39,795 bases of DNA from an uncultured Armatimonadia bacterium (GTDB lineage: Bacteria; Armatimonadota; Zipacnadia; Zipacnadales; JABUFB01), in the NCBI GenBank assembly GCA_964639415.1, contig CAZXDD010000003.1, positions 1 through 39,795 of the forward strand, given 5' to 3'. A program made the position numbers and the translations under genes. The notes beneath the pieces were generated by a model that had not been told where the DNA came from, ran no database searches, and worked only from the letters and a program-made list of their open reading frames with translations. Within the stretch, counting starts at the first letter, position 1; each line of letters begins with the position of its first letter. Positions 11,265-32,417 of this stretch are shown here, one piece after another.

Positions 11265-12212
11265 ATGACACCACGCCAGGCCGCCATCGCGGCCCTCAAG
11301 CGCGAGAGACCCGACGCACTGGTACCTCACCTGGAGCTGGAGTTCCAACTCGCCGAGGAGTTGTGGGGGCCCGAGAAGCGCTCCCTGCGTGCGGAGCATC
11401 TGGAGGGCGTGACCGGCGCGGCCAGGCAGGATGCGCTCAAGCGGAATGCGCAGAACTGGGTGGACATCGCCAGACGGTACAAGTGGAACGTGATCACGGG
11501 CCTCCATTGGCTCTCGCTGGAGGACCAGTGCCGATCCTTCCGGTACATCCGGGAGATCTCCGGCGACGAGTTCATGCTCTCGGTCTTCGCGGACGGCACG
11601 TTCAGCATCCCCAGCGGCACCGATATGCTCGAGCACGTGATCTGGCTCACGGAACACACTCAGGAGGCTCTGCAGACCGCGGAGAACCACGCTCAGAATG
11701 CTATCGCCCATGTGAAGACGGCCGTCGAGGCGGGGGGCGAGGTGGTCATGATGTGCGCCGACTACTGCTTCAACGACGGCCCCTTCCTCTCCCCCACCAT
11801 GTTCCGACAGTTCGTGACCCCGTATCTGACTAAGGTCGTCGCGGCGATCCACGAGGCCGGTGCCTTCGCGGTCAAGCACACCGATGGGCAGATCATGCCC
11901 ATTCTCGACCAGATGGTGGACTCGGGCATCGATGCCCTGCACTCGCTGGACCCCATGGCGGGCGTGGACATCGCCGAGGTCAAGCGCCTGTACGGCGACA
12001 GAATCTGCCTGATCGGCAATGTCAACTGCGCCAGGGTGCAGGCGGGGACGAAGGAGGAGGTGCGGCAGAGCGCCGAGTATTGCCTGAAGCACGGCGGTGT
12101 GCAGCAGGGCGGGTATATCTACGCCACCAGCAACTGCATCTTCGAGGGCGTCCCCATCGAGAACTACGAGGAGATGCTGCGGGTACGCGAGGAGCTGGGC
12201 TATCCGGCCTAG
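11265..12212 (+). CDS. Uroporphyrinogen decarboxylase (URO-D)/MtaA-like family protein
   Basis: Trimmed to ATG 11265, which has GGAG upstream. The C-terminal half resembles the URO-D fold (FVTPYLTKVVAAIHEAGAFAVKHTDGQIMPILDQMVDSGIDALHSLDP...RICLIGNVN). Confidence 0.65.
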   Translation: MTPRQAAIAALKRERPDALVPHLELEFQLAEELWGPEKRSLRAEHLEGVTGAARQDALKRNAQNWVDIARRYKWNVITGLHWLSLEDQCRSFRYIREISGDEFMLSVFADGTFSIPSGTDMLEHVIWLTEHTQEALQTAENHAQNAIAHVKTAVEAGGEVVMMCADYCFNDGPFLSPTMFRQFVTPYLTKVVAAIHEAGAFAVKHTDGQIMPILDQMVDSGIDALHSLDPMAGVDIAEVKRLYGDRICLIGNVNCARVQAGTKEEVRQSAEYCLKHGGVQQGGYIYATSNCIFEGVPIENYEEMLRVREELGYPA

Positions 12213-12242
12213 CGCCGGCGAACGTCACCAGGGAGGTGCAGC

Positions 12243-17164: not shown

Positions 17165-17448
17165 TTGGTGGCCGGCGGTGGTGCGTTCCCGAGAGGAGAC
17201 CCTGCCATGGCTGTGCGGTGCCCTCTGTTGTGCCTGGCGTTGGGCGTGCTCGCCGTGCAGGCGCGGGGCAAAGGCCACTCGTGTGTGTCTGGACAGGATG
17301 ACCGCCGCCCGGGCGGGCCGGGAAGTCACTCCGCGGTTGTCCGCCAACAGCCGCCATGGCGGCGCCGACACATGCCAACCGGCCCGGCAGACAGGCTCAC
17401 AGACGCCCCCTCAGCCAGGGGGCGATGAACGAGGCAAGGAGCACGGAC

Positions 17449-18984
17449 ATGACCAGAGCGCTGTGTGAGCTGTTTCCGATCTCCGTGGTGCTGCTGGCGC
17501 TACCGGCGGCGAGCCCGGCGGCCCCGCAAGCGTGGTTTGTGGATAGCACCACAAAGGTCTTCAGGGACGACGCACCGGGTGATGTGAGGGCGGCGCGCCT
17601 CACGGCGGCCGGCAACGAGACGGAAGCGGTGCAGCTCGTCATCCGCGCCGGGCAAGATGGTCTTGAGGGGGTCGATGTACGGGTCGGCGACCTTGTGAGC
17701 GCGGAGGGCGCGCGACTACAGGGCGCTGCGGTGGAGGTCTTCCGGGTGGCCTATGTCTACCTGCCGGCCCACGACCGTGAGTATCCGGACCCGCTGCCGC
17801 CCTGGACACCCTGCAGCATTCCGCCAGGGCAAAACCAGCCGGCCTGGCTGGATATCCACGTACCGGCCGAGGCGGCTGCAGGCGTCTACCGTGGCACGGT
17901 CACGGTGACGGCTACCGGCACCGCACCGCTGGAACTGCCGCTGCAGCTCACGGTCTGGGACTTCTCTCTGCCGGAAACGCCCCGGTCGCGCTGCGCCTTC
18001 GGCATCCACACACAGGGAATCGAGGCGCAGCACCAGGTGACCGCCGGCAGCGCGGCCTATGATGCCCTGCTGGCCCGGTACTGCGACATGCTCCTGGACC
18101 ACGGGGCCACGCCCCGCGACCTGTACTTCGGGCTCGAGTCCGAGAGGACCGCCGAGTACCTCAACGATCCGCGGTTCAATGCTTTCGCCATCCCCTACAC
18201 GGAGGACACCGCCGAGCTCAAGCGTCGAGTGGAGTACCTCCGGGGCCGGGGCTGGGTGGACAAGGGCTACTTCTATGTGGTGGACGAGCCGATCACCCAG
18301 GAGCATTACGACCTCCTGGCCCGGCGCGCGGAGCAGATCCACGAAGTAGGCGCCGACCTGCGCATCGTGGTGCCGTACTTCCGCGAGCCCGCCTTCGAGG
18401 CCAAGGACGGCGCGCACGGGCTCCTGACGGGTCTGTGTGACATCTGGTGCCCGAAGGTGAGCTTCTATGACGAGGCGTTCCTCACGGCCAGGCAGGCTCT
18501 GGGCGAGGAGGTCTGGTGGTACGTGTGCTGGGAGCCCGGGGCGCCCTACGCCAACCTGTACGTGGACATGGCCGGCATAGACCACCGGGCACTGTTCTGG
18601 CAGCAGGCCCACTACAATGTGGAGGGCTTCTTGTACTGGACCAGCAACTACTGGCAGGCCGCGACGGGCACCGCCGATCCGTGGACGGACATGGCCACCG
18701 TCAAGGACCTCAGTGCCACCGTCTACGGCGACGGCTCTGTGCTGTATCCGGGTGCGAAGGTCGGCGTTGACGGGCCGGTGGCCTCCGTGCGCCTGAAGCT
18801 GATCCGCGCGGGCCTTCAGGATGTGGAGTACCTGCGCCTGCTTCAGGACAAGGAGGGCCGCGAGGCGGTGCGCGCCGTGACGGCACAGGTGGTGGAGGGC
18901 CCGGATGCGTACTCCAAAGACACCGCGCGGTATCTCTCGCTGCGCGAGGCCGTGGGCCGCCGGCTCAGTGAGGGCGGGCGCTGA
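17449..18984 (+). CDS. DUF4091-type glycoside hydrolase-like protein
   Basis: Trimmed to ATG 17449 (AAGGAG 7 nt upstream). Signal peptide. FWQQAHYNVEGFLYWTSNYW, DGSVLYPG and SVRLKLIRAGLQDVEYLRLL are typical of this family. Confidence 0.7.
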   Translation: MTRALCELFPISVVLLALPAASPAAPQAWFVDSTTKVFRDDAPGDVRAARLTAAGNETEAVQLVIRAGQDGLEGVDVRVGDLVSAEGARLQGAAVEVFRVAYVYLPAHDREYPDPLPPWTPCSIPPGQNQPAWLDIHVPAEAAAGVYRGTVTVTATGTAPLELPLQLTVWDFSLPETPRSRCAFGIHTQGIEAQHQVTAGSAAYDALLARYCDMLLDHGATPRDLYFGLESERTAEYLNDPRFNAFAIPYTEDTAELKRRVEYLRGRGWVDKGYFYVVDEPITQEHYDLLARRAEQIHEVGADLRIVVPYFREPAFEAKDGAHGLLTGLCDIWCPKVSFYDEAFLTARQALGEEVWWYVCWEPGAPYANLYVDMAGIDHRALFWQQAHYNVEGFLYWTSNYWQAATGTADPWTDMATVKDLSATVYGDGSVLYPGAKVGVDGPVASVRLKLIRAGLQDVEYLRLLQDKEGREAVRAVTAQVVEGPDAYSKDTARYLSLREAVGRRLSEGGR

Positions 18985-19032
18985 ACCCCTCCTGGGCGAC
19001 ATCGCGTCTTCAGATCCCGGATGAGGAGCCCA

Positions 19033-20100
19033 ATGGAACCCTGTAGACTGGCCGTCATCGGCGCCGGGCTTATCGGGGCCAAACACGCGGCGATGGTGCA
19101 GGCGCACGATCTTTGCCGCCTTGTGGGCGTCTCGGACACCGCCCCGGAGCGGAGGGCCGTGGCGGAGCAGCTCGGCGTCCCCTTCTACCCCTCGGTGGAG
19201 AAGCTGCTGGAGAGCGAGCGCCCCGACGGCGCCATCATCGCCACCCCCAACGCCCGGCACGCCTCGGTGGCCGTGGCCTGCGCCCGGCGAGGCGTCCACG
19301 TACTCGTGGAAAAGCCCATCGCCGACACGCTCCCAAGCGCGCGGTCGATCGTTGACGCGGCCGGTCAAAACGGGATCTCCGTGCTCGTGGGCCACCACCG
19401 CCGCCACAATCCGCTGGTGGCGAAGACACGCGAATTGGTGCGCGGAGGGGCTTTGGGCCGCCTGGTGGGTGTCTCGGCGCTGTGGACGCTGCTGAAGCCC
19501 GATGACTACTTCCGGGTCGCCTGGCGGCGCGAGCATCCCGGCGGTGGTCCGCTGCTCATCAACCTGATCCACGACCTCGATAGTCTCCGCTTCATCTGCG
19601 GTAGCGTGGTCTCGGTGTATGCCCACTGCAACTCCGCGGCGCGGGGCTACGAGGTCGAGGACTCGCTGGCTATCTCGCTGAGCTTCGAAAGCGGCGCTCT
19701 GGGTACGTTCCTGGCATCGGATGCCACGCCGGCGGTGTGGTCGTACGAGGCCACTACCGCCGAGAACCCCTTCTACTATCATGTGCCGGAGAACTGCTAC
19801 CACTTCGTGGGGACCGCCGCCTCTTTGGCATTCCCGCGGATGGAGCTATGGCGCTATGTCCAAGAGCAGGGGCGCGGCTGGGATCACCGGCTCGAGAAAG
19901 AGCGCCTGGAGGTGGCCGGGGCCGACCCTCTGGTCGCGCAACTGGCGCACTTTTGTCGAGTCATCCGCGGACAAGAGGCGCCGGTGATCGGTGCCGAGGA
20001 GGCCGCGCAGTCGTTGGCTCTTGCGCTGGCCGTACGGCAATCGGCGGCCCGGGGCACCGCGGTCTGCCCCGCCGAGCTGATGGCCATGGAGGACGAGTAG
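19033..20100 (+). CDS. Gfo/Idh/MocA family oxidoreductase
   Basis: RLAVIGAGLIGAKHA Rossmann motif and the VLVEKPIA (EKP) motif. ATG 19033 is preferred over 19021 because of GAGGAG spacing. Confidence 0.85.
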   Translation: MEPCRLAVIGAGLIGAKHAAMVQAHDLCRLVGVSDTAPERRAVAEQLGVPFYPSVEKLLESERPDGAIIATPNARHASVAVACARRGVHVLVEKPIADTLPSARSIVDAAGQNGISVLVGHHRRHNPLVAKTRELVRGGALGRLVGVSALWTLLKPDDYFRVAWRREHPGGGPLLINLIHDLDSLRFICGSVVSVYAHCNSAARGYEVEDSLAISLSFESGALGTFLASDATPAVWSYEATTAENPFYYHVPENCYHFVGTAASLAFPRMELWRYVQEQGRGWDHRLEKERLEVAGADPLVAQLAHFCRVIRGQEAPVIGAEEAAQSLALALAVRQSAARGTAVCPAELMAMEDE

Positions 20101-20145
20101 CACCGACCGGCGCCGCGGGCCGGGCTTAGCGCTGCGAGGTGAGCC

Positions 20146-22713
20146 ATGCCGGTACTGAGTGTGAGGAAGGAGACTACACGGGGCGTCGCGCTCCGGCGGC
20201 TCTGGGCGACCTTTCTGTGTTCGGCGGCGGTTGCCGCCTCTGCGTCCCCGGTGGCCTACTGGCCCTTTGACGCGTCCGAGGGGGCGGCGGTGATCGACAG
20301 GATGGGCAACGTCGACGAGGGCCGCCTGTTCGGGGTCACGCGGGGCCCCGGGCGGGTCGGAGATGGGCTCAGGTTCCCGGGCACCGGGGGCGACGGGTAC
20401 GTCCGGGTGCCCGACTGCGAGGCGCTGCAGTTACAGGCGGCCTTCACGATACAGTTTTGGTGGCACAAGACCGGTGAGGCGGTGCAGATCTTCGTGCGCA
20501 AGGGGGAGGGCAGGCAGGCGAACACCTATGCCTATTACGAGGGCGGCCTGCATCTTGTGGTGAGCGCCACGGACGGCCAGGACTATCGGGCGACCGGACC
20601 GCCCCTGCCGGACGGGTGGCACCATCTGGCCTTCACGTGCGATGACCGGAGGCTTTGCATCATCGCGGACGGGGCGATCGTGGGAACCGGAGAGGCGCCG
20701 GGGGTGCGGCTGTTCACCGATGAATCCGACCTGCTCATCGGCACGTACGCCCCCGGGTACAAGCATTGCCTCGGCGGCGTGCTGGATGAGCTGTGCGTGT
20801 CGGACACCGCGCTGCCTGCGGACAGGTTGGAGGACGAGATGAAGATCGCGCAGGCCGTGGAGCCGCCTGCGGCGCAGGGGCCTCCCCCTGTCTTCGAGCC
20901 CACCGCCGGCGGGATCGTGTTGGCCAGGGACGGCCGCCCCGGAGCAAGCATCGTCGTCGCCCGCGAGGCCTCCGAGTTGCAGATGGCCCCGGCCAGGGAG
21001 CTGCAGCGGGTGATCCGGAAGCTGACCGGCGCCCGGCTGCCGATCCGCAGGGACGACGAGCGGGTCGCGGGCAGTGTTGTCCTGGTGGGCGAGAGTGTGC
21101 GGACAAGACAGATGGGCCTATCGGGCGGCGGCCTGGGCGGAGATGCCTTCACCATCAAGTCCGGGCCCGGCTACCTGGTGCTCCTGGGCCACGATGCGAG
21201 CATGGATGGCAATGCCGCCGGCGGGCCTATTCCGGGACGCTGCAAGACCGGTACATCCCACGCGGTCCACGCCTTCTTGCACGATGTCTGCGGGGTGCGC
21301 TGGTTCATGCCCGGCAAGCTGGGGGAGATCGTCGCGCACAGCCCCTCCTTGGAGGTGCCGGCGCTGGAGCATACCGAGCAACCGGCGCGGCTGTATGTGC
21401 TGGGGTCGTTCCGGTCCGCCGATGGCGCCAGGTGGGCGCAGCGCCAGCTCTTTGGCAGCTCGGTCTTCATCAAGCACTCCGGTGGGCACCTGTGGTATTC
21501 GATGATCCCCGAGAAGGAGCATTTCGCCGAGCATCCCGAGTGGTTTGCCCTCATCGACGGTAGGCGCACAGGGGAGGGCAACCATCTTTGCGTGACCAAT
21601 GAGGAGATGTTCGCCGCGGCTGCCGCGTACCTCAACAGCCTCTTCTCCGAGGGCTATGAGTGGGTGGAGCTGGGCCAGAGCGACGGCTGGCGCCGCTGCC
21701 GGTGCGAGCGGTGCGAGGCCGCGGACGACTATCGCTCCGACGGCTGGTGGATACCGGGCCGCCCGGCCGACAGGGTCTTCTCGTTCCACGCCGCCCTGGC
21801 CGAGGAGGCCCTCAAGGCCCACCCGGAGGGGAAGGTGCTTGTGATCGCCTACGGCCCCACCGGCGAGGTGCCCGGGCGTCTGGAGCGGCTGCCCGCCAAC
21901 GTCGTCGTCGAGTTCACTCACGACCCGCCGGAGCTTCTGGAGCGCTGGAACCGCTTCCACCACAGCTTCACCTCGTACGTGTACTGGTTCGGGCTGTACC
22001 ACAGGATGGGCTACGGGCCCAAGAGCTCCCCGGCCCACGTGGCGGCGGAGCTGCGCCGCCATCGCGCCGCCGGCTCGCAGGCCTTCTTCCTCTGCGGCGG
22101 AGATGAGTGCTGGGGCACGGAAGCCCCCACCTACTACGTCATGGCCCAACTGCTGCGAAACCCCTCGCTGGACGAGGCCACCCTCCTGCGCGAGTTCTGC
22201 GACGGCCTGTTCGGAGAGGCCGGGGAGACCATGCGGGAATACTTCACCGGCTTCCTGCAGGCCGCCGATGACTACCGGGCCCTCACCGGCGCCGAGGAAA
22301 AGACCGGGGAGCCCTACCGCGCCCCGGACCGCTCGCCGGAGGAGGTCTACCTCCACTGCTTCTCGCAAGCACGTCTGCTGAGCTGCGCGGAGCTGCTGGA
22401 GCGGGCGCAGGCCGAGGTCACCACGGACGACGAGCGGCGGCGTCTGCAGTTGTTCCAGGACGGGTTCGACTACATCCGCCTGACCGCGGAGGCCTTCGCC
22501 GCGGCGCAGCGGCAGGCCGAGGACGACGACGAGGCGAGCCGGACGGCCCTGACCGAATGCCTGCGACGGCGGGCCGAGCTGGTGGAGGCGTTGGTCGCTC
22601 GTCAACAGGCGAGCGGCGCGGACCTGCCGCCGGCGTTCCGGGCCGGGGCCGAGGACCTGCTCCTGGGGCCGGGCAAAGCGTACGCCGGGGTGTTGGCCAC
22701 GGAACCGCAGTGA
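20146..22713 (+). CDS. LamG-like + DUF4838-type glycan-active protein
   Basis: 855 aa. The N-terminus is LamG/concanavalin-like (YWPFDASEG...GLRFPGTGGDGYVRVPD...FTIQFWW). The central GTSHAVHAFLHDVCGVRWFMPGKLGE is typical of DUF4838. Confidence 0.7.
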   Translation: MPVLSVRKETTRGVALRRLWATFLCSAAVAASASPVAYWPFDASEGAAVIDRMGNVDEGRLFGVTRGPGRVGDGLRFPGTGGDGYVRVPDCEALQLQAAFTIQFWWHKTGEAVQIFVRKGEGRQANTYAYYEGGLHLVVSATDGQDYRATGPPLPDGWHHLAFTCDDRRLCIIADGAIVGTGEAPGVRLFTDESDLLIGTYAPGYKHCLGGVLDELCVSDTALPADRLEDEMKIAQAVEPPAAQGPPPVFEPTAGGIVLARDGRPGASIVVAREASELQMAPARELQRVIRKLTGARLPIRRDDERVAGSVVLVGESVRTRQMGLSGGGLGGDAFTIKSGPGYLVLLGHDASMDGNAAGGPIPGRCKTGTSHAVHAFLHDVCGVRWFMPGKLGEIVAHSPSLEVPALEHTEQPARLYVLGSFRSADGARWAQRQLFGSSVFIKHSGGHLWYSMIPEKEHFAEHPEWFALIDGRRTGEGNHLCVTNEEMFAAAAAYLNSLFSEGYEWVELGQSDGWRRCRCERCEAADDYRSDGWWIPGRPADRVFSFHAALAEEALKAHPEGKVLVIAYGPTGEVPGRLERLPANVVVEFTHDPPELLERWNRFHHSFTSYVYWFGLYHRMGYGPKSSPAHVAAELRRHRAAGSQAFFLCGGDECWGTEAPTYYVMAQLLRNPSLDEATLLREFCDGLFGEAGETMREYFTGFLQAADDYRALTGAEEKTGEPYRAPDRSPEEVYLHCFSQARLLSCAELLERAQAEVTTDDERRRLQLFQDGFDYIRLTAEAFAAAQRQAEDDDEASRTALTECLRRRAELVEALVARQQASGADLPPAFRAGAEDLLLGPGKAYAGVLATEPQ

Positions 22714-22926
22714 CGGGGCACCCGGCGCAGCATGGCCGCTGATCTTGCCACCTCGCACGCCAAGTGGGCAGGGGTGGCGGCTGCATTGTTTGGCTGTGGG
22801 TAGGAGGTATTGGCACCGCAAAGGTTGAATGGGCGCGTGGGGAGCGCAAGAGGAGCGGTCCTACGAGACGCTCCGCAGGCATCAGCCCGGCTCGGGGAGT
22901 TATCACGTCGAAGGGAGAGTGGCAAC

Positions 22927-23238
22927 ATGGCCGAAGCAGTTCTGTTCATCACCAGCAAGGGGTACGGCAAGGTTGTCGACGCCGCCAAGGAGGCCTTCCC
23001 GCCCAAGGGTCGCGGCGGTAAGGGAGTCAAGGGCTTCAACGTCACGGAGGATACCGGTCCCGTGGTGTGCTGCGAGCACGTCAAGACCGGGAAGGGTGCG
23101 AACGTGCTGATCACCACCGCGCAGGGCATGTGCCTGATGATCGCGGTGGATGATCTGACGCCACGCAGTCGCACCGCCGGCGGCGTGAAGCTCATGAGCG
23201 TGGCCGACGACGACGCCGTAGTCAGCGTGCTGGTATAA
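22927..23238 (+). CDS. Stand-alone GyrA C-terminal-domain-like protein (two beta-pinwheel blades)
   Basis: 103 aa from ATG 22927, with GGGAGAG upstream. There are two tandem ~48-aa units matching the GyrA/ParC CTD blade pattern: LFITSKGYGKVV...KGRGGKGVKGFNVTEDTGPVV and VLITTAQGMCLMIAVDDLTPRSRTAGGVKLMSVADDDAVVSV. Confidence 0.7.
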   Translation: MAEAVLFITSKGYGKVVDAAKEAFPPKGRGGKGVKGFNVTEDTGPVVCCEHVKTGKGANVLITTAQGMCLMIAVDDLTPRSRTAGGVKLMSVADDDAVVSVLV

Positions 23239-23262
23239 GGAGAGTTACCGGACGTCCCCCTG

Positions 23263-23287
23263 GGGGCCTCCCGTGACGGGAGGCCCC
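23263..23287 (+). terminator. Candidate intrinsic terminator hairpin
   Basis: Perfect 11-bp GC-rich stem ggggcctcccg / cgggaggcccc with a 3-nt loop, 25 nt after the stop of the GyrA-CTD-like gene. It is followed by ttggt, so there is no real U-tract. Confidence 0.5.
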
Positions 23288-23366
23288 TTGGTCGACAATT
23301 GCCGGGGGAAAGCCGGGAGCCGGTGGGGATCGGTGGGCTCCCCGCCCGCATGGCGTCCCGCCGACC

Positions 23367-24707
23367 GTGAGGGAGAGCATCGGTGTGAGCGGCGCACCAG
23401 GCAGTATGCTGCACCCCCTGCTGAGCGAGCACGACCCGAAGACGACCTCCGAAGGAACCATTGATCCCCTCGGTCTGTATTCCATCGCCGACAGTCTCGC
23501 CCGGCTGCTCTGCCCCGGGGTACGGGAGCGCCAGTCGCGCCTGCGTCTGCTCACGGCCTATGCCGTATCGCTCCACCTCTGTCCAAAGTTCGATCCGGAG
23601 CAGATAGCCGCCGACGGCGTCACGGAGCCCTGGCTGGTGTTTGAGTGGTACCTGGTGGAGGGGCTGGTGCGGCGGCTGCCGGCAGCCGAGCTGGTCGGCG
23701 TCCCGGGGCGGGACAAGACCGAAGCCGCGGTGCGAGCGCACGCCCACCTCTCTGCGGCCCGCTATCTGAAGGGCCCGGCGAACTTCGGCTTCCACGGTGT
23801 GTACCGGGTGCTGGCCCGGGATCTGGGAGTTGAGGTGGCCGGGCAACTGGGGCACACCGGCTTCGCTCTGCTCTCGGCCTGGGCCGACGATCAGGGCCTC
23901 GAGGGATTCGTGCAGAGCGCTGATGGCGAGGGCCGGCGCCTGCGCTCCCTGCTCACCGATGCCGTCACCGCAGGCCTGCAGGCGGGCGAGGTCGACCGGA
24001 CCCCGGGCTGGCAGGGCTGGGCGCTCCTGGCGGAGCACCTGGCGCCCGGGCGCATTGGCCCCGGCGAGCGCAGTGTCCTGCGCGGAGCTCTCGAGGCCCC
24101 CGAAGCGGGCCACCGGCGGGCCGTCCTGGCCTACCTCATCTCTGACGAGGGCCGGGCACGGTGGCTGCAGGCCGGCTCGGAGCGGGATTTGCACTCCGGC
24201 CTCCGGGAGCGTTCCTCTGCGCCCTTAGGAGCCCTGCTGGATGCCATCTCAGTCTACGAGACCTTCAGCCGTCTGTGCACCGATGCCTTCTTCGCCTGCC
24301 TGCACGAGATGTCTCAGGCCACCGGCCGCGTGCGCCCGGAGCGCCTGGGGGCCTCGCCTCCGGTGGCCGCCGCAGCGCAGCAAGTACCCTCACTTCTCAG
24401 CGAGCTGACACAGCGCCTCTCACCCTACGGTCAGGAGGCAGCGCTGAATGAGCGCTTCTGCGAGCTCTTCCGCCCGTGCGATGCCACGGCCTGGTCGGTC
24501 GCGCTATTGGACCATCACAGGAGGGTGCAGCAGGGGAAACCTCCGGCGGGGAAGGCGCCCTGGTGTGAGCGCTTCGACGACGGCTCGTACATGGTACGCC
24601 CGGCCTACCGTGTCGGCGATACTGCGGGGGGAACCGAGGAATACGTACACGCCTACCGCACCGGACCCCTGTGGCGCTTCGCCCGCGATCTGAGACTGGT
24701 GAGCTGA
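23367..24707 (+). CDS. Hypothetical protein (first gene of PLD/SNF2 operon), no domain recognisable by eye
   Basis: 446-aa ORF with high GC3. Its stop TGA directly abuts the ATG of the next gene (tgaatg at 24705-24710). Start is ambiguous: GTG 23367, GTG 23385 (GGGAG 9 nt upstream) or ATG 23406. Confidence 0.7.
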   Translation: MRESIGVSGAPGSMLHPLLSEHDPKTTSEGTIDPLGLYSIADSLARLLCPGVRERQSRLRLLTAYAVSLHLCPKFDPEQIAADGVTEPWLVFEWYLVEGLVRRLPAAELVGVPGRDKTEAAVRAHAHLSAARYLKGPANFGFHGVYRVLARDLGVEVAGQLGHTGFALLSAWADDQGLEGFVQSADGEGRRLRSLLTDAVTAGLQAGEVDRTPGWQGWALLAEHLAPGRIGPGERSVLRGALEAPEAGHRRAVLAYLISDEGRARWLQAGSERDLHSGLRERSSAPLGALLDAISVYETFSRLCTDAFFACLHEMSQATGRVRPERLGASPPVAAAAQQVPSLLSELTQRLSPYGQEAALNERFCELFRPCDATAWSVALLDHHRRVQQGKPPAGKAPWCERFDDGSYMVRPAYRVGDTAGGTEEYVHAYRTGPLWRFARDLRLVS

Positions 24708-26807
24708 ATGGCGCGCAAGAGCCATGGAGATCCTGTCTATGGGAAGCTGCTGGACGCGTGGGTCGCGCCCCGCGCCGCCGGCCGGCCGGTGGGCTGTATC
24801 GCCACGAGCTACACCTTCTCTCCCGAGCTGTTCGAGGAGGAGTGCCTGAGCCGCTTTTGCCAACTGGAGAGCGACCCGCACCACGACGGCATCGCCTACC
24901 TTCTGGAGCGCGAGGAGAAGATGGCCCAGCTTCAGTGCGCCGCGGCCCTTGTGGATCAGCACCACTGTGTCGGTGCCCGCAATCTGCGCTGGGACATGCT
25001 GTGCATCCGACCTCAGCGGGGCATCCTGCACGCGAAGGTCTCTCTGCTTGTCTGGACCGAGGTGGTGCGCCTCATCGTCTCCTCGGCCAACCTGACCGAG
25101 GACGGCTATCGGCGCAATCGCGAGGTCTTCGGGGTGCTGGACTGGCGGCGGGGCGAGGAGGCGCCGGCTACCTGCCTGGGTGAGTTTCTGGGCTATCTGG
25201 GTGGGATCGTGGCCCTGTGGCGACCCGGCTCCGGCCCGGCCGGCCCGGCCGCCCGCTGCCTGGCCCTGCTTCGGCACACCGAGGAGCTGGTGGGCGGATG
25301 GGAAGCCGAGGCCGGCCGCTCCAGCCGTCGCCCTGTCCAGGTGTTCCCGGTGCTCGTTGAGCCCGGCGGACAGGATGCGCTCAGTCGGCTCGGAGAGCTT
25401 CTTCCCTCAAGCCGCCCGCCCGACGAGGCCCGGGTCTGCAGCCCCTTCTTCGACCCGCCCGGCACAAGCAATGCCCCGACACGGGCGCTCTGGGGCCGAC
25501 TGCGGCTCCGTGGCCGGGCCCATGTGGAGTTCCGCGTCGAGGCCACCGAGGACGGCGGCACGGGAGCCCTCCTGCTTCAGGCCCCCCACAGCCTGCTGAG
25601 CCAACAGCCGCCGGGCCGACCGGTCAGCACCACCGTGACACGCGCCGTGGATGGCCGGCGGCCCGCTCGGGCGGCGGACGACGGTGCCGACGCCGTGGTA
25701 GATGCGCTGCGCCCGCTGCATGCCAAGGCAGTCTGGCTGGCGAACGACGAGGCCGTGGTCTACATGGCGGGTTCCAGCAACTTCACCAGCGCGGGTCTGG
25801 GAATCGGCAGGACGGCGAACCTCGAGGCCAACCTGGCGTACGCCGTGGACGGCCGCCGCCATCCGGAGGCCCGCAGGCATCTGGAGGAGAGCTTCCCTCC
25901 CGGCCGGCCGTTCCCTCGGGACGCCGAACTGCGCTGGCAGGAGGAGGTACAGAGTGAGGAGAGCGCGGAGGCCGAGTGCCTGCCGCTTCCGCCGGCTTTC
26001 GGAGCCGCGATCTACGAGCGTGACGCCTCCGACAGGCCCCAGGTCCGCTTCATCCTCGACGACAGTCCGCCCGCCGGGTTCGCCGTGCTCGGCGAAAGCG
26101 ATGGCTGCCTCTTCCTGTCGCCCGGCGACCTGACCGGCGACGGCCCCCCGTGGGACATCTGCAGAGCCTGGCCCACTGAGCGTCCGCCCACCGGCTTCTG
26201 GGTGATCTGGCAAGAGATCGCGGGAAAGGCCTGGTGGCCGGTGAACGTGGACTGTCCCCGGTGCCTGCCGCCGCCGGAGGAGCTCAACTGCCTGCCCCTG
26301 GAGGTGCTCATCGACATCCTCACCTCCGCACGACCCATGCACAGGGTACTGGCGGGCCACATCGCCCGCAGGCAGGGCTCCGTGACCCACGACGCGCCTG
26401 TCGTCGACCCTCACAAGAAGGTGGACACCGCGCGATTCCTGCTGCAGCGCACGCGTCGCGTGTCGTGGGCTCTCACCGCGCTCCGCGAGCGGCTACAGCA
26501 CCCTGCTCCCACCCGCGAGTGCCTGGACTGGCGGCTGCGCGGCCCTGTCGGGGTGGTCGCCGTCGCCGAGGCTCTCCAGCGCGAGGCGCGGTCCGCGGAT
26601 GAACGCCGCTTCCTGCTGGCCGAGTTGCTGCTGGAGCTGCACCGGACCGTCCCGGAGCAGGCCCCCAGCTGTCTGAGCGCGGAGGAGGTACGCCTGGCGG
26701 TACGGGACCTGCTGGACGAGTTGGCGCGGGAACTGGCAACTGAGCGCCACACCCGCACACCCATCGACCGCTACGTGGCCGACGTCCTGGAGGCCATCGG
26801 AGCATGA
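24708..26807 (+). CDS. PLD-superfamily (double HKD) nuclease-like protein with long C-terminal extension
   Basis: 699 aa. HKD motif 1 is ILHAKVSLLVW...LIVSSANLT (H108/K110). HKD motif 2 is LHAKAVWLANDEAVVYMAGSSNFT (H338/K340). The C-terminal ~320 aa are unassigned. Overlaps the next gene by 4 nt (ATGA). Confidence 0.85.
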   Translation: MARKSHGDPVYGKLLDAWVAPRAAGRPVGCIATSYTFSPELFEEECLSRFCQLESDPHHDGIAYLLEREEKMAQLQCAAALVDQHHCVGARNLRWDMLCIRPQRGILHAKVSLLVWTEVVRLIVSSANLTEDGYRRNREVFGVLDWRRGEEAPATCLGEFLGYLGGIVALWRPGSGPAGPAARCLALLRHTEELVGGWEAEAGRSSRRPVQVFPVLVEPGGQDALSRLGELLPSSRPPDEARVCSPFFDPPGTSNAPTRALWGRLRLRGRAHVEFRVEATEDGGTGALLLQAPHSLLSQQPPGRPVSTTVTRAVDGRRPARAADDGADAVVDALRPLHAKAVWLANDEAVVYMAGSSNFTSAGLGIGRTANLEANLAYAVDGRRHPEARRHLEESFPPGRPFPRDAELRWQEEVQSEESAEAECLPLPPAFGAAIYERDASDRPQVRFILDDSPPAGFAVLGESDGCLFLSPGDLTGDGPPWDICRAWPTERPPTGFWVIWQEIAGKAWWPVNVDCPRCLPPPEELNCLPLEVLIDILTSARPMHRVLAGHIARRQGSVTHDAPVVDPHKKVDTARFLLQRTRRVSWALTALRERLQHPAPTRECLDWRLRGPVGVVAVAEALQREARSADERRFLLAELLLELHRTVPEQAPSCLSAEEVRLAVRDLLDELARELATERHTRTPIDRYVADVLEAIGA

Positions 26808-29647
26808 CTGCCTCCTACCCCTACCGCGAGGACATCAACCTGCTGGTGGAGGGCAGAATCACGGCGGAGGATGCCCGCCGGCAAACGGTGACGGCCCGGG
26901 AGATACTCCGTCGCCTGGAGACTCAGCCCGGAGTGGTGCTGGCCGACGAGGTCGGCATGGGGAAGACCTTCGTGGCTTTGGCCGTGGCGGCCTCGGTGGC
27001 GCTGTCCGATGGCCACGGAAGACCGGTGGTAGTGATGGTTCCGGCATCGCTCCGGGGCAAGTGGCCCACCGATTTCGCCGTCTTCCTGGAGCGCTGTGTG
27101 CCGAGATACGTCGCCGACCGCCTGGCCTGCTCTTCCGCCCACCGGGCCGTGGACTTCCTCCGGCTGCTGGACGATCCCCCCGAGCGCAGGAGGTCCGTGA
27201 TCTTCCTGACCCACGGCGCCTTCAGCAACGAGCTGTGCGACGGTTGGGTTACCTTGGCCTTCATCCGCCGCGCGCTCCACGGGCGCCACGGGATGGACGA
27301 GCTCCGTCTCAGACTGTCAAGAGTGCTGGGTGAGATACTCAACATGCGCTGGGCCGAACGGAACGGGCAGGATGTCTGGGTCGAGCTTCTCAGGACGGAC
27401 CCCGGCGGCTGGCTGCGGGTCCTGACACGTTGGGGCATCGACCCCGAGCACGACGGCGATAGCGCCACCGACGACGACCCGGTGCCCGAGCCGGTTGTGG
27501 CGGCGTTGCGCGCCCTGCGGGCCGCCGACACGAAGGACGTCTTCGAGGCGCTGCAGCAGGTGCCGCTACGGCAATCGAAGCATCGCCAGGCACGCATCCG
27601 GGAGGCCCGTTCGCTGATCCGTGAGCACGTCCGGGCCCTGTGGCGACAGTGCGTATCGACCCTGGATATGAAGCTTCCGCTCCTGGTGCTGGATGAGGCC
27701 CATCATCTGAAGAACCCGGCGACACGCCTGGCCGGGCTGTTCCGGGCGTCGGAGGCAGAGGCCGATTCGCAAACCGTGTCACGCGGGGCGTTCGCCGGCG
27801 TGTTTGAGCGGATGCTGTTTCTCACCGCCACACCCTTTCAGTTGGGGCACGGCGAGCTGTGCTCCGTCCTGGAGCGGTTCTCCGGAGTGAGCTGGGAAGG
27901 CCCGGCGGCACCGGCGTTGTCGCGAGATGACTATGCCCGACGTCTTGGAGACCTGCGGCTGGCGCTGGATGGCGCCCAGGAGGCCGCAGTGTCGCTGGAC
28001 ACCGCCTGGGGCCGCCTGAACGCCGATGACCTCGTGGTGGACGGGCGGTCCTGCGCCGACGTGGACCGGTGGTGGGCGGCGGCGCTGGCCGGCGGGGAGA
28101 CAGGGACGGCGGGGGAAGGGGTCCTTGGCAGCTACAGGAGGACGGCACTGCAGATGGCGGAGGCCGAGACACAACTGCGGCCGTGGGTCATCCGCCACCT
28201 GAGACCACGCCAACTCCCGGCCCCCCATGCAGACAGGGCGCGACGGCGTCGCCTGCCGGGCGCGGCCATCGTCTCGGACGGCGAAGGCGACGGTGAGGGA
28301 GGTCTTCAGCTCGACGAGGCCTCACTTCTGCCCTTCCTGCTGGCCGCCCGGGCCGTAGCCTGCACCCCGGAGAGTCGCCCCGTGTTCGCCGAAGGCCTGG
28401 CCTCCAGCTATGAGGCATTCCTCCAGACCCGCCAGAGTCAGGGCTCAGCGGGCCTGGACACAGACGACGACGGGGCCGGACCGCCGGCGGACCTGTGCGG
28501 CGCCGCCCGCTGGTATCTGGAGCAACTGGAGACACAGGTCCTGCCGGCCGCACCTCGCCGGGGGCTGCGGCATCCCAAGATGGCCGCCACCGTCGACCGA
28601 GCCCTGGAGTTGTGGCGCGCCGGGGAGAAGGTGGTCGTGTTCTGCCACTACGTGGCCACCGGACGGGCCCTGCGCCGTCGGCTCTGTGCCGCACTCGACG
28701 GCGAGATCGCACGCCGCGGAGGCGAGCTCATCGGCTGTTCGCCGGCGCAGGCCAGGAGCGAACTGGAGCGTATCGGGCAGCGGTTCTTCGACACCGATTC
28801 GCCGGTGCGTCGGGAATGCGACGCCGTATGCGCCCGCATGGTGGCGCGCTTTCCCGCCCTGTCGCCCTACACAACGGACCTGCAACAGATCGTGCGCCGC
28901 TACCTGCGGACACCGTCCTTCCTCACCCGGTTCATGCCGCTGCGCGGCGGCGAGCTGCCGGCCGATGCCATATCCCAGGCGCTCAGGAGCCGCGACGGCT
29001 CGGGCGCCTCGCTGGCGCAGGTTCTCACGGGCTTCCTTGGCTTCCTGGCAGACACCTGTGGCACCGCCGACCGGGAGCGGTACATCGAGGCGGCCGCCCG
29101 CATCCAAACAGGGTCGCACACCGCCGGCGATGCCACGGTCTCGCTGGAGGGGGAGGACCTTCAGGACGGGCGTGTCGAGGGCCTGCTCCCCAACGTCCGG
29201 CTGGTCAATGGCAGCACCCGCACCGACACACGACAACGCCTGATGCTGGCCTTCAACACCCCTTTCTACCCGGAGGTCCTGATCGCCAGCAGTGTCCTGT
29301 CCGAGGGCGTCGATCTGCACCTGAACTGCCGTCATGTCATCCACCACGACCTGTGCTGGAACCCGACCACCCTCGAGCAGCGCACAGGCCGCATCGACCG
29401 CATCGGCGCCAAAGCCGAGCGTGTCGGACAGCCCATCTCCGTCTACTTGCCGTACATTGCCGAGACCCAGGATGAGAAGATGTACCGGGTGGTGATGGAC
29501 CGCGAGCGGTGGTTCTCCGTGGTGATGGGCGAGGACTACCGGCTCGATCCGCGCACTCTGGAGCGTCTCGCCGCCCGCCTTCCGTTCCCCGAACCTGCGG
29601 CTCAGGCCCTCGCCTTCCGGCTGGGAGTCGACGAGCAAGGCGCCTGA
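26804..29647 (+). CDS. SNF2-family (SF2) helicase/ATPase
   Basis: 947 aa. Motif I LADEVGMGKT (K54). Motif II LLVLDEAHHLKN (D297-H300). Motif III LFLTATPFQ. Motif IV-like KVVVFCHY. Motifs V/VI VLIASSVLSEGVDLH ... WNPTTLEQRTGRIDRIG. Confidence 0.9.
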   Translation: MTASYPYREDINLLVEGRITAEDARRQTVTAREILRRLETQPGVVLADEVGMGKTFVALAVAASVALSDGHGRPVVVMVPASLRGKWPTDFAVFLERCVPRYVADRLACSSAHRAVDFLRLLDDPPERRRSVIFLTHGAFSNELCDGWVTLAFIRRALHGRHGMDELRLRLSRVLGEILNMRWAERNGQDVWVELLRTDPGGWLRVLTRWGIDPEHDGDSATDDDPVPEPVVAALRALRAADTKDVFEALQQVPLRQSKHRQARIREARSLIREHVRALWRQCVSTLDMKLPLLVLDEAHHLKNPATRLAGLFRASEAEADSQTVSRGAFAGVFERMLFLTATPFQLGHGELCSVLERFSGVSWEGPAAPALSRDDYARRLGDLRLALDGAQEAAVSLDTAWGRLNADDLVVDGRSCADVDRWWAAALAGGETGTAGEGVLGSYRRTALQMAEAETQLRPWVIRHLRPRQLPAPHADRARRRRLPGAAIVSDGEGDGEGGLQLDEASLLPFLLAARAVACTPESRPVFAEGLASSYEAFLQTRQSQGSAGLDTDDDGAGPPADLCGAARWYLEQLETQVLPAAPRRGLRHPKMAATVDRALELWRAGEKVVVFCHYVATGRALRRRLCAALDGEIARRGGELIGCSPAQARSELERIGQRFFDTDSPVRRECDAVCARMVARFPALSPYTTDLQQIVRRYLRTPSFLTRFMPLRGGELPADAISQALRSRDGSGASLAQVLTGFLGFLADTCGTADRERYIEAAARIQTGSHTAGDATVSLEGEDLQDGRVEGLLPNVRLVNGSTRTDTRQRLMLAFNTPFYPEVLIASSVLSEGVDLHLNCRHVIHHDLCWNPTTLEQRTGRIDRIGAKAERVGQPISVYLPYIAETQDEKMYRVVMDRERWFSVVMGEDYRLDPRTLERLAARLPFPEPAAQALAFRLGVDEQGA

Positions 29648-29701
29648 CCGCGCGCGGGCCCCTGCGGCCCCCAACGGCGGTCTTCCCTCCCCCACGCCGC
29701 C

Positions 29702-30700
29702 TCAGTCCTCCTCCATGTCGCGCCAGTCAAACACCGCCGCGATGAGTTCCTTGGAGTGGCTATGGGCCAACTCGTAGGCCTCCTTCATCCGCTCGGCGGG
29801 GAAACGATGGGAGATCAGGCTTTCAAGCTGCAGGGCGCCGGTGGCCATCAGCTCGAGGATGTACTCCAGATTCCGGCGCAGGTTGAACCTCAACTCCGCG
29901 GCGGGGCAGTCCGTGCGCGGTGAGGAGCCGGCGCCCAGCAGCGTCAACTGCTTGCCGTAGAACCACTGCGGGTCCAGGGGGTTGAAGGCCGGGGCCGGCT
30001 GAGCACGTCCCGGGAAGCCCAGGATGCTCACGCGGCCGCCACGGCGGGCCAGCTCCACCGCCTGCCGGTACGCGTCCCAGCTATTGGCGGTGAGGATCAC
30101 GATGTCGGCGCCGGTAGAGCCCAGCAGGGGGCGCAGGTCCTCGGCGCTCTGGAGCTGCTCGGTGAGGAAGGTCCCGTGGGCGCCGACGCCGTGCGCCGCC
30201 TCGGCCCGCACCGCCGAGTTCGCCACAGCGGCAACCTTCGCGCCCATCGCCCGCGCCAGGCCCACCGTCGCCAGACCGATGACTCCCAGGCCGATCACCA
30301 CCACGTTCTCGCCGGTCTCATACCGCGCCTGACGCAGGGCGGCCAGTCCCAGTTGTGTCAGATAGCTCAGTGACGCCTGCTCCGAACTGACGCCGTCGGG
30401 CACCGGAACCAGCACGTCCTCGGGCTCGGCGACGTACGCCGACATGTGGGGCTTGATGGAGAACACCCTCTGGCCGTCGCCGCCGGTACTCCCCACATTG
30501 GAGTACCCCACCGGACGCGGATAGTCCGGCGCTCCGGGCAGTTCCGTGGAGCGTCCCTCGTAGTTGCCCAGGTCCGTGCCCGTAGAGAAAGCTGTCACCT
30601 GTGTCCTGACGTAGACCTGATCGTCCTTGAGGCTCTGTGGGTCCAGGGGCCGCTGCTCGATCCGCAGATCGCCGGCGCCGTAGAGAGTAGCCTGCTTCAT
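29702..30700 (-). CDS. Medium-chain (zinc-type) dehydrogenase/reductase family protein
   Basis: Trimmed to ATG 30700 (AGGAGG upstream). Begins MKQATLYGAGDLRIEQRP. NAD-binding VVVIGLGVIGLATVGLARAMGA. The upstream 82 aa in the ORF track are Arg/Pro-rich and unlikely to be coding. Confidence 0.8.
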   Translation of the reverse strand: MKQATLYGAGDLRIEQRPLDPQSLKDDQVYVRTQVTAFSTGTDLGNYEGRSTELPGAPDYPRPVGYSNVGSTGGDGQRVFSIKPHMSAYVAEPEDVLVPVPDGVSSEQASLSYLTQLGLAALRQARYETGENVVVIGLGVIGLATVGLARAMGAKVAAVANSAVRAEAAHGVGAHGTFLTEQLQSAEDLRPLLGSTGADIVILTANSWDAYRQAVELARRGGRVSILGFPGRAQPAPAFNPLDPQWFYGKQLTLLGAGSSPRTDCPAAELRFNLRRNLEYILELMATGALQLESLISHRFPAERMKEAYELAHSHSKELIAAVFDWRDMEED

Positions 30701-30932
30701 TGCTGCCTCCTGCTCCGATGATGTATGCCCGCGCCACCGGGGCACTCTTCGCGGCGCGATAGGCGGTGACCTTGCCCACCGGGCAAAAGGGCGGAGGGAG
30801 CAAAACGCGGGGAGCCTGCGGCCGGCCTGTCGCCGGGGGACGAGAAGACCGCCGGCGCGCTTCGCGTCGGCGGCCGTGAGGAACCGCCTTCCCCGGGCCC
30901 GGCCGTCACCGGGCCCGGAGTCCTGCCCCCTC

Positions 30933-32417
30933 TCAGAGCCAGGCACTGTAGCGGATCGTGTAGGTGATCTTGGCCTCGGTGTCCTTCGGAACGGGGACGA
31001 CGTACTCGAAGCTGTGGGCGCTGGTCTTCTTGCTCGGCATGCTCTCCTTCACGATCTCCCAGTCGCTGAAGCCACGCTCCTCGCAGATGACTTCGACGTC
31101 CTGGTCCTTGTGGTTGCGCAGCAAGACCTCGACGGACTCCTCCCACACGCCGGGCCCCAGGTTGCGCCGATCCGTCTGCTTCCACTCGCCCACCACGTCG
31201 AAGGCGTCACCGATGTACAGCCTGACCTTCTCGTCCCTGGGAGTGTGGTCGAGCTCGTCCTCGCCGATGAACTGCCGGCTGCCGTCCGGGTCGGACTTGT
31301 ACACGCGCACCTTGCCCTTGGGCAACGGCATCCCTAGATGGTCTGCTTCCGAGTTGGTGAACTGTATCTTCACCTGGACCTTGGACTTCCCCAGTGGCCC
31401 CCAGGGCTGGTCCATCCCCCGGTCGGTGCGGTGGCGCCCGTTGAAGTAGTACAGCTTGGTCACGGGCACATCGTGGGTGGTGAGCAGCTCGACCTGCTTG
31501 GTCTCATTGTCTCGGATAGTGGTAGGGCGGGCCATGCCGTACATGTGGTACTCGAAGAAGGCCTGCTCCTCGAACTGGGGCGCGGCGCCGGGCATGCCCA
31601 TGCCGCCCGGGGCGCCGCCGCGCGTGCGCGCTGCGACCTGGGGCTCGATGCGCCGGACATCGCCGGCGATGAGCTTCAGGTGCGCGTCGCGGTAGGTGGC
31701 GCCACTGCGGTTGTGCAATGTGACCCACCCGGTGAGGTCCGTACGGGTGTCGTCGGCGTTCACCGTCGCGATGTAGTCGCAGTTCCAGCGCACATTGTCG
31801 GTGATGTAGGAGACCTCGACGTCGTGGCCCCCCGGCTGCGTGCACTCGATGAGCCAGTCCAGTGTGGGCCTGACGATGAGCCCCTCGGGCAGCTCGGGCA
31901 GCTCAATGCTGTCGGGGGAGACGATCAGCAGCCCGTTGGGCGTACTGAGCACCAGGCCCGCCTGGGCGGCTCCCGGGGGCGTCGCGCCGCTACCCATGTT
32001 TCCCCTGGCGGGCTGCTCCTGGGCGCTCATCAGGACCCCCGTTGTGGCGGAGAAACCACCGCCGTCCTGCCTTTGCCTGACGGTGATCTCCCTGCCCAGG
32101 TACTTGTCCAGGAGCTTGGAGCGGCTCACCAGATCGTACTGGTAGTTCTGCTCGCGGATGACGCAGGAGTCCGGGGCGGTGAGGGACCGGAAGTGGACCG
32201 AGGTCGGGTCGATACTGGCCGCAACGTCGGAGAGCCGCACCTGATTGAGGCCCTCGGTCAGCTCGAGGCGGCGGGTATCCTTGACCAGCGCCATGTTCAC
32301 GTTGTACACGGTGATGGCGGTGGAGGTGGGCGCGTCCGGCGTCGTGGGCGGCTGGGCGAGGGTCGGTGTGACGAGGGCGCAAGACAGCAGCAGGACGCAC
32401 GCCCGCGGGCAGCGCAT
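30933..32417 (-). CDS. DUF4139-like secreted protein
   Basis: Trimmed to ATG 32417 (GGGGGAG upstream). Signal peptide MRCPRACVLLLSCALVTPTLAQ. ITVYNVNMALVKDTRRLELTEGLNQVRLSDVAASIDPTSVHF is typical of DUF4139/DUF4140 proteins. Confidence 0.65.
   Translation of the reverse strand: MRCPRACVLLLSCALVTPTLAQPPTTPDAPTSTAITVYNVNMALVKDTRRLELTEGLNQVRLSDVAASIDPTSVHFRSLTAPDSCVIREQNYQYDLVSRSKLLDKYLGREITVRQRQDGGGFSATTGVLMSAQEQPARGNMGSGATPPGAAQAGLVLSTPNGLLIVSPDSIELPELPEGLIVRPTLDWLIECTQPGGHDVEVSYITDNVRWNCDYIATVNADDTRTDLTGWVTLHNRSGATYRDAHLKLIAGDVRRIEPQVAARTRGGAPGGMGMPGAAPQFEEQAFFEYHMYGMARPTTIRDNETKQVELLTTHDVPVTKLYYFNGRHRTDRGMDQPWGPLGKSKVQVKIQFTNSEADHLGMPLPKGKVRVYKSDPDGSRQFIGEDELDHTPRDEKVRLYIGDAFDVVGEWKQTDRRNLGPGVWEESVEVLLRNHKDQDVEVICEERGFSDWEIVKESMPSKKTSAHSFEYVVPVPKDTEAKITYTIRYSAWL

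Follow-up and report, generated by a model that had tools for sequence, protein, structure and literature searches.

A Three-Gene Cassette of an Uncultured Armatimonadia Bacterium as a Probable Member of a Widespread Clade of Azaca-Like PLD Nuclease Systems

Introduction

Does a three-gene operon found in the genome of an uncultured Armatimonadia bacterium encode a new kind of defence system, or a divergent form of a known one? The operon is located on contig CAZXDD010000003.1 (assembly GCA_964639415.1), of which a stretch of 39,795 nucleotides, hereafter called the window, was analyzed. It comprises the genes g1, g2, and g3, coding for a helical protein, a candidate nuclease of the PLD family, and an ATPase of the SNF2 family, respectively. 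In the initial annotation, which was made from the sequence alone, this trio was described as a candidate novel defence system whose gene content matches none of the described systems. The latter claim turned out to be wrong, as the three parts of Azaca correspond to those of the trio in type and order and as PADLOC-DB lists a further trio of this type, PDC-M27. The trio is therefore kept as a defence candidate, but not as a new kind of system.

Based on the profile comparisons presented here, the trio probably stands for a clade of Azaca-like systems that is widespread and uncharacterised and in which an ATP-driven PLD nuclease acts against phages. It is regarded as a divergent relative of a known kind, because g2 and g3 match the models of Azaca and PDC-M27 best and g1 is linked to them by remote homology.

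Azaca is composed of ZacA (DUF6361), the PLD nuclease ZacB, and the SF2 helicase ZacC (bioRxiv 10.1101/2025.07.10.664194; bioRxiv 10.1101/2024.10.26.620412). Its discovery is credited by later papers to Millman et al. 2022 (e.g., bioRxiv 10.1101/2024.10.26.620412); in the 2022 preprint version of Millman et al., Azaca is not yet included. [quoted passage not shown] ZacA is essential, and the mutation of conserved ZacA residues left the cleavage in vitro unaffected (bioRxiv 10.1101/2025.07.10.664194).

Conserved Candidate Nuclease and ATPase Components

The product of g2 shows a Pfam match to PLDc_2 (E 3.6e-6). The two HKD motifs already noted in the initial annotation are intact. The first is formed by H108 and K110 together with S126-x-N128, the second by H338 and K340 together with G355-S-S-N358, and all nine residues H108, K110, S126, N128, H338, K340, G355, S356, and N358 show no or almost no variation among 48-65 homologues. 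Among the PADLOC models, which were used without curated cut-off, ZacB ranks first for g2 (3.1e-11) and covers both HKD motifs, with residues 104-378 of g2 being aligned to positions 106-334 of the 586 positions of the profile. The same model is matched by all 25 g2 relatives compared (best 9.9e-20), ahead of PDC-M27B and DrmC. PDC-M27B itself is matched by 21 of these 25 relatives and by g2 at 3.7e-5, in residues 86-141 only (~55 residues). A candidate PLD nuclease of the ZacB type with an intact HKD active site is thus found in g2, the alignment covering ~40% of the ZacB profile. The C-terminal ~300 amino acids of g2 are conserved in the family and contain no known domain.

The product of g3 is recognized by the Pfam models Helicase_C (2.4e-14) and SNF2-rel_dom (8.3e-8). 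It contains the full set of SNF2/SF2 motifs that had been assigned to it, namely GMGKT (residues 51-55), DEAH (297-300), TATP (341-344), and QRTGRIDR (859-866), all of which are invariant in 48 homologues. Long insertions are present between the Walker A motif and the DEAH motif as well as between the two RecA lobes. The PADLOC models with the best scores are PDC-M27C (4.8e-39), DrmD (1.1e-29), and ZacC (2.6e-26); the match to PDC-M27C amounts to 132 bits for a protein of 947 amino acids and is split into two partial stretches. The sequence matches in the PDB include RapA, a ZorD-like (Zorya-type) DEAD/DEAH helicase, and Rad54/Snf2 proteins.

The Signature Protein g1 and Its Relationship to ZacA

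For g1 of the window no Pfam, NCBIfam, or PADLOC model was matched. The protein belongs to a large and highly conserved family, with 703 representatives after clustering at 50% identity (E<=1e-3) and at least 552 matches in a word-indexed search. A homologue search with the profile of this family (A2) retrieved close relatives only, with no tail of proteins annotated as DUF6361. Pfam scans of the relatives gave nothing other than noise, e.g., GerD and DUF3565, as did the comparison of the family profile with PDB chain sequences.

An AlphaFold2 model of g1, calculated with 40 diverse homologues (predicted local distance difference test score 93.2, predicted template modelling score 0.89), shows a fold that is predicted to be almost wholly helical apart from a small hairpin. 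Neither the PDB (best fold match E 1.7, template modelling score <0.16) nor the viral structures of BFVD (best fold match E 0.83) gave a meaningful relative of this model.

The relationship of g1 to the first proteins of known trios became visible through its relatives. PDC-M27A is weakly matched by 20 of 32 g1 relatives (best 1.2e-5) and ZacA by one. Furthermore, a more distant relative (P0237) matches ZacA at the N-terminus (3.5e-4) and PDC-M27A at the C-terminus (3.2e-4) in a collinear manner. Additional evidence is provided by a sister trio in Methylocystis sp. MJC1. Whereas a tblastn search of g1 against plasmids gave no match, the search with g2 gave a single one, on the 127-kb plasmid NZ_CP107561.1 (L084). 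The PLD protein encoded there aligns with the g2 family (98.6%, E 5e-16), and the third gene, which spans the plasmid origin, is a homologue of g3; in the record, the genes of this trio are annotated as 'hypothetical' or are not listed. The family of its first protein (A3) aligns with the g1 family over the full length (hhalign 98%, E 1.6e-13), and 6 of the 33 members of A3 match ZacA (best 1.2e-5), while 10 match PDC-M27A. A remote homology of the g1 family to ZacA and PDC-M27A is supported by these profile matches.

It is concluded from the comparisons of all three components that trios of a ZacA-like protein, a double-HKD PLD protein, and an SNF2 protein seem to form a superfamily, in which the window type would be one large branch apart from Azaca proper and PDC-M27. 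At least four branches appear to be visible, i.e., Azaca, PDC-M27, the Methylocystis type, and the window type.

Just upstream of the trio on the Methylocystis plasmid, genes for a Fic protein, a QueC-like 7-cyano-7-deazaguanine synthase, and an XRE regulator were found. They may constitute another defence module.

Linkage and Distribution of the Trio

One genome per species was scanned (185,579 species representatives) and 80 loci were fetched; together with metagenome contigs, ~85 loci were available. A relative of g1 is encoded by at least 179 of the species representatives. The hosts belong to at least 15 phyla and are mostly environmental lineages. They comprise Armatimonadota, Planctomycetota (including anammox Brocadia), Verrucomicrobiota, Acidobacteriota, Desulfobacterota-type lineages, and Nitrospirota, as well as Bacteroidota, Ignavibacteriota, Chloroflexota, several proteobacterial classes, Actinomycetota, and candidate phyla. 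The amino acid identity of g1 stays at ~50% even between phyla, which is read as a sign of horizontal spread.

In the window, the gene arrangement of the operon given in the initial annotation was confirmed. The three co-oriented open reading frames (ORFs) are real, the stop codon of g1 (TGA, 24705-24707) is directly followed by the ATG of g2 at 24708, and g2 and g3 overlap by ATGA, with the ATG at 26804 and the TGA at 26805-26807. The same arrangement was found elsewhere: in every sufficiently long locus of the ~85, the homologue of g1 is followed by its PLD and SNF2 partners, which are adjacent and in fixed order. The junctions are mostly overlaps of 4 or 8 nucleotides or gaps of less than 10 nucleotides, an overlap of 4 nucleotides being the most frequent one. 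In addition, the identities of g1, g2, and g3 to the window copy covary (r = 0.83-0.91). The earlier view of a self-contained cassette, in which helicase and nuclease are combined with a third protein of their own, was supported. A fourth conserved gene was not found, and no other gene recurs in more than six of the ~85 loci; a fixed methylase or a fixed tRNA or integration site was likewise not detected.

In line with the defence interpretation of the initial annotation, the flanks of the cassette in other genomes vary and are often rich in defence or mobile genes, whereas in the window and in two further loci (L086, L089) they are metabolic. Recurrent neighbours code for HsdM, HsdS, tyrosine integrases, Mrr, an SF1 helicase, an Eco57I-like methylase, AbiEii, and DUF2779 proteins. 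In the complete genome of Candidatus Nitrospira bockiana the trio lies near genes for type III restriction-modification, SIR2-HerA, and UvrD, and one further locus contains TIR, WYL, RadC, and HsdM genes. Other contexts combine Tn7-like genes and a NERD helicase, or an integrase and a large SIR2 protein, or contain Schlafen/AlbA, NERD, and GIY-YIG genes. On the metagenome contig L002 the cassette directly follows a DISARM-like set, in which DUF1998/MZB and large-helicase genes are joined by a small PLD gene; a reverse transcriptase gene also belongs to this context.

Two decayed copies were also observed. The L002 copy (11305-14548) seems to be inactivated, because an insertion sequence element with a DDE_3 transposase lies between g1 and a 5′-truncated g2. 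In a metagenome-assembled genome (MAG) of a member of the Pirellulaceae (L021, 3616-4387), residues 1-164 of g2 are joined to residues 853-942 of g3, which looks like an internal deletion leaving g1 and a g2-g3 fusion remnant. The patchy distribution, the portability, and the defence-rich company of the trio are the usual signature of immune cassettes and argue against a housekeeping role.

The closest relative was found in another Armatimonadia MAG (L004), with 88% amino acid identity of g1 and ~90% nucleotide identity. It is syntenic with positions 15944-26284 of the window, and the trio is therefore considered to be resident in this Armatimonadia lineage.

Two single loci showed peculiarities. 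In L089, an ORF of 413 amino acids without Pfam match (16229-17470) begins 3 nucleotides downstream of the g3 homologue in the same orientation and could be a lineage-specific fourth gene. A 5.9-kb contig of a Candidatus Hodarchaeota MAG (L090) carries a g1 homologue of 52% identity and a PLD gene, located after an SF1 helicase gene. This copy in the MAG of an Asgard archaeon could reflect a transfer between domains or a binning error.

Comparison With Known Defence Systems

As in Azaca, a protein of ~400-450 amino acids, a PLD nuclease, and an SF2/SNF2 helicase are encoded in the same order and without a methylase. The best model for g2 is ZacB, g3 matches ZacC, and the g1 family reaches ZacA remotely. 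In contrast to Azaca, g1 of the window matches neither the DUF6361 nor the ZacA model, g2 with its 699 amino acids matches only the HKD core of the ZacB model, and for g3 ZacC is outscored by PDC-M27C and DrmD. The hosts differ as well, since Azaca was studied in Bacillus, whereas the window clade occurs mainly in Planctomycetota, Verrucomicrobiota, Acidobacteriota, Desulfobacterota-type lineages, and Armatimonadota.

PDC-M27 is a three-gene 'phage defence candidate' of PADLOC-DB v2.0.0, which is itself computational only. A literature search found no paper mentioning it, and no such trio is described in papers dealing with the diversity of BREX or with the modularity of defence systems. All three components of the window clade are related to PDC-M27, with g3 matching it best and with the 20 of 32 g1 and 21 of 25 g2 relatives named above. 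However, the matches are weak and partial: there is none for g1 of the window, ~55 residues for g2, and 132 bits for g3. Judged by these scores, the window clade appears to be a sister of PDC-M27 and not a member of it.

With class 1 DISARM (DrmA, DrmB, DrmC, DrmD, and DrmMI) the trio shares a PLD protein, an SNF2 ATPase, and the defence context. Unlike DISARM, it contains neither DrmA nor DrmB/DUF1998 nor a methyltransferase, and none of these is recurrent in the ~85 loci. The curated NCBIfam cut-offs are missed by a wide distance (DrmC 26.3 bits against 133, DrmD 120.7 bits against 610), and g2 differs from DrmC by its two HKD motifs and its approximately threefold length. DISARM was excluded because its core genes are missing and the scores lie far below the curated cut-offs, in agreement with the initial annotation.

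Mokosh and a fused PLD-helicase protein (NCBIfam NF042964; PADLOC PLD_Helicase) resemble the trio in pairing a PLD nuclease with a P-loop helicase. The helicase of Mokosh is an SF1 Upf1-like RNA helicase, whereas g3 is of the SNF2 type, and g3 reaches only 74 bits against NF042964 (cut-off 1100 bits), in the C-lobe of the helicase only. Unlike the trio, both lack a ZacA-like third protein.

Proposed Mechanism and Alternative Functions

By analogy with Bacillus Azaca, on which the assumed assembly, substrate, and trigger are modelled, the three translationally coupled products would assemble into one complex. The SNF2 ATPase g3 would load on double-stranded DNA, its presumed substrate, translocate with ATP, and deliver or license the double-HKD PLD nuclease g2. 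This nuclease would cut DNA without metal ions, via a phosphohistidine intermediate at a single site formed by H108/K110 and H338/K340. The helical protein g1 would be an obligatory third subunit, serving as scaffold and/or providing target specificity. The complex probably responds to a feature of the invader DNA; hypermodified bases, which have been suggested in the case of Bacillus Azaca and T4, are one example. As no methyltransferase is present, self DNA would probably be spared through this response and not through marking of the host DNA.

Several points weigh against the assignment of the trio to the Azaca-like systems. For g1 of the window, no match to ZacA, PDC-M27A, or Pfam DUF6361 was found even at E-values up to 10, and DUF6361 is matched by none of 42 g1 relatives (32, then 10) at permissive E-values. 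The link between g1 and ZacA is transitive and weak, built from E-values between 1e-5 and 1e-2 and from a single profile-profile comparison. The alignment of g2 leaves more than half of the ZacB profile uncovered, and the C-terminal half of g2 matches nothing. The scores of g3 lie in the range that several SNF2 models yield for any SNF2 protein. Moreover, the flanks of the cassette in the window, L086, and L089 consist of housekeeping and glycan genes and do not form a defence island. Finally, glucosyl-hydroxymethylcytosine as trigger of Bacillus Azaca is a suggestion only.

Considering that g1 escapes the DUF6361 models and that the all-helical fold predicted for it with confidence has no relative among solved or viral structures, it is possible, although doubtful, that the clade of the window functions as a defence system separate from Azaca, with g1 as a new kind of sensor or specificity subunit for a cue other than hypermodified T-even DNA. 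If true, it would represent an SNF2-driven PLD nuclease with a new self/non-self discrimination that requires no marking of the host DNA.

The main alternative, although unlikely, is that the trio has the same parts as Azaca but follows another logic. Here, g3 and g1 would sense a cue of infection, such as stalled replication, DNA ends, or a phage protein, and the PLD nuclease would then be unleashed on phage and host DNA, leading to abortive infection as proposed for Hachiman. That helicase-nuclease pairs can act by sensing genome integrity is shown by Hachiman (PMC12278908). This possibility is consistent with the lack of a methyltransferase and of a recognisable modified-base reader domain in g1, g2, and g3, and with g1 having no detectable known fold and only a remote relationship to ZacA. 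On the other hand, no sequence feature separates infection sensing from the direct targeting of foreign DNA, and the biochemistry of Bacillus Azaca is that of selective T4 DNA cutting and not of indiscriminate degradation.

It is very improbable that the trio is a housekeeping or accessory module for DNA transactions, e.g., an SNF2 protein for RapA-like recycling or repair combined with a PLD-family phosphodiesterase, without immune function. The best solved-structure matches of g3 are RapA and the Rad54/Rad26 family, metabolic genes surround the cassette in the window, L086, and L089, and the cassette is kept at the same place in the Armatimonadia relative with ~90% nucleotide identity. However, the NCBIfam score for RapA (82 bits) is far under the cut-off of 576 bits, and the distribution, with at least 179 carriers among the 185,579 species representatives, scattered over 15 phyla or more, is very patchy. 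Variable flanks without a conserved fourth gene, the frequent neighbourhood of restriction-modification, SIR2, TIR, Mrr, AbiE, integrase, and transposon genes, and the existence of decayed copies also contradict a housekeeping role.

The least probable explanation, a DISARM remnant or minimal form with DrmC and DrmD left after the loss of DrmA, DrmB, and the methylase, could draw on the matches of g2 to several DrmC models and of g3 to DrmD models and on the DISARM-like genes adjoining the L002 cassette, but it is hardly tenable given the low scores (DrmD 121 bits against 610, DrmC 26 bits against 133), the restriction of the DrmC models (~150-270 positions) to the region around the first HKD motif of the 699-amino-acid g2, the invariance of the trio with g1 in ~85 loci, never with DrmA, DrmB, or a methylase as fixed partner, and the separate PLD gene carried by the DISARM-like set of L002 itself.

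Viewed as a divergent Azaca-like system, the trio reveals no new principle by itself. It does point to a blind spot of annotation, with a large and widespread branch of such trios being mostly missed by the present models. The g1 family has neither a Pfam nor an NCBIfam model and only fragments are caught by the PADLOC models, so that defence censuses probably miss this clade. The superfamily supplies many divergent sequences, and their comparison should show which surfaces of g1 and ZacA are truly constrained. The understanding of the Azaca mechanism could gain from this, as ZacA is essential yet its conserved residues looked dispensable in vitro (bioRxiv 10.1101/2025.07.10.664194).

Locus Organization and Genomic Surroundings

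The features of the locus and of the Methylocystis sister trio are listed in Table 1.

Table 1. Coordinates and predicted properties of the trio, its adjacent features in the window, and the sister trio of Methylocystis sp. MJC1.
Feature	Position	Strand	Description	Predicted role or remark
g1	23406..24707	+	433 aa (amino acids), mostly alpha-helical ZacA-like protein	predicted adaptor/specificity subunit
g2	24708..26807	+	699 aa, two HKD motifs, PLD-family nuclease candidate	predicted effector
g3	26804..29647	+	947 aa, SNF2-family ATPase	predicted DNA translocase
Hairpin	23262..23288	+	G+C-rich, 3′ of the GyrA_C-like ORF	likely transcript boundary ahead of the trio
GyrA C-terminal-repeat ORF	22927-23238	+	103 aa, directly upstream of the trio	PF03989, E 3.8e-19
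Zn-dependent dehydrogenase-like gene	29702-30946	-	directly downstream of the trio	
Methylocystis sister trio	L084 427-4845 and 6616-10079, continuing across the origin		446-aa ZacA-like protein, 707-aa PLD protein, SNF2 protein across the record start	

The longest ORF of g1 starts with a GTG at 23367 and extends to 24707, corresponding to the 446 amino acids given in the initial annotation, and a further in-frame GTG at 23385 is preceded by AGGGAG. This ORF exists, but the translation start is probably the ATG at 23406, resulting in a protein of 433 amino acids, because homologues begin at this position and because a gene call made independently for an identical metagenome contig has the same start.

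A hairpin upstream of the trio, previously placed at 23263-23287, is real. Its 12-bp G+C stem occupies 23262-23288, and RNA folding gave a free energy of -33.8 kcal/mol (z -2.55 against shuffled sequences). It has no T tract and was hence not called in the terminator scan; the consensus scan of 22700-29900 found neither a terminator nor a sigma-70 promoter. The hairpin likely marks the transcript boundary between the GyrA_C-like ORF and the trio.

The flanking by glycan-catabolism genes, which had been described for both sides of the trio, holds for the wider surroundings in the window, where genes for a heparinase II/III-like protein, GH123, DUF4838, and GFO/IDH/MocA are located. The immediate neighbours are instead the GyrA-repeat ORF and the Zn-dependent dehydrogenase-like gene. 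The operon and the genes adjacent to it in the window include no methyltransferase gene, and DrmA, DrmB, PglZ, and BrxC were not found with the trio, so that the corresponding statement of the initial annotation was borne out. There is no compositional sign of a recent insertion, with a G+C content of 0.68-0.72 in the trio region and of ~0.65-0.72 in the rest of the window.

The ORF directly upstream of the trio encodes two free-standing blades of the C-terminal beta-pinwheel of DNA gyrase A. It is kept at the same position in the Armatimonadia MAG L004 and on the JGI contig L091, and in other lineages the trio is not accompanied by it. Finally, the heparinase-like and GH123 genes are separated by ~2.4 kb in L004 (1326-3741) compared to ~130 bp in the window (17269-17399), a difference that appears to be an indel in the glycan locus.

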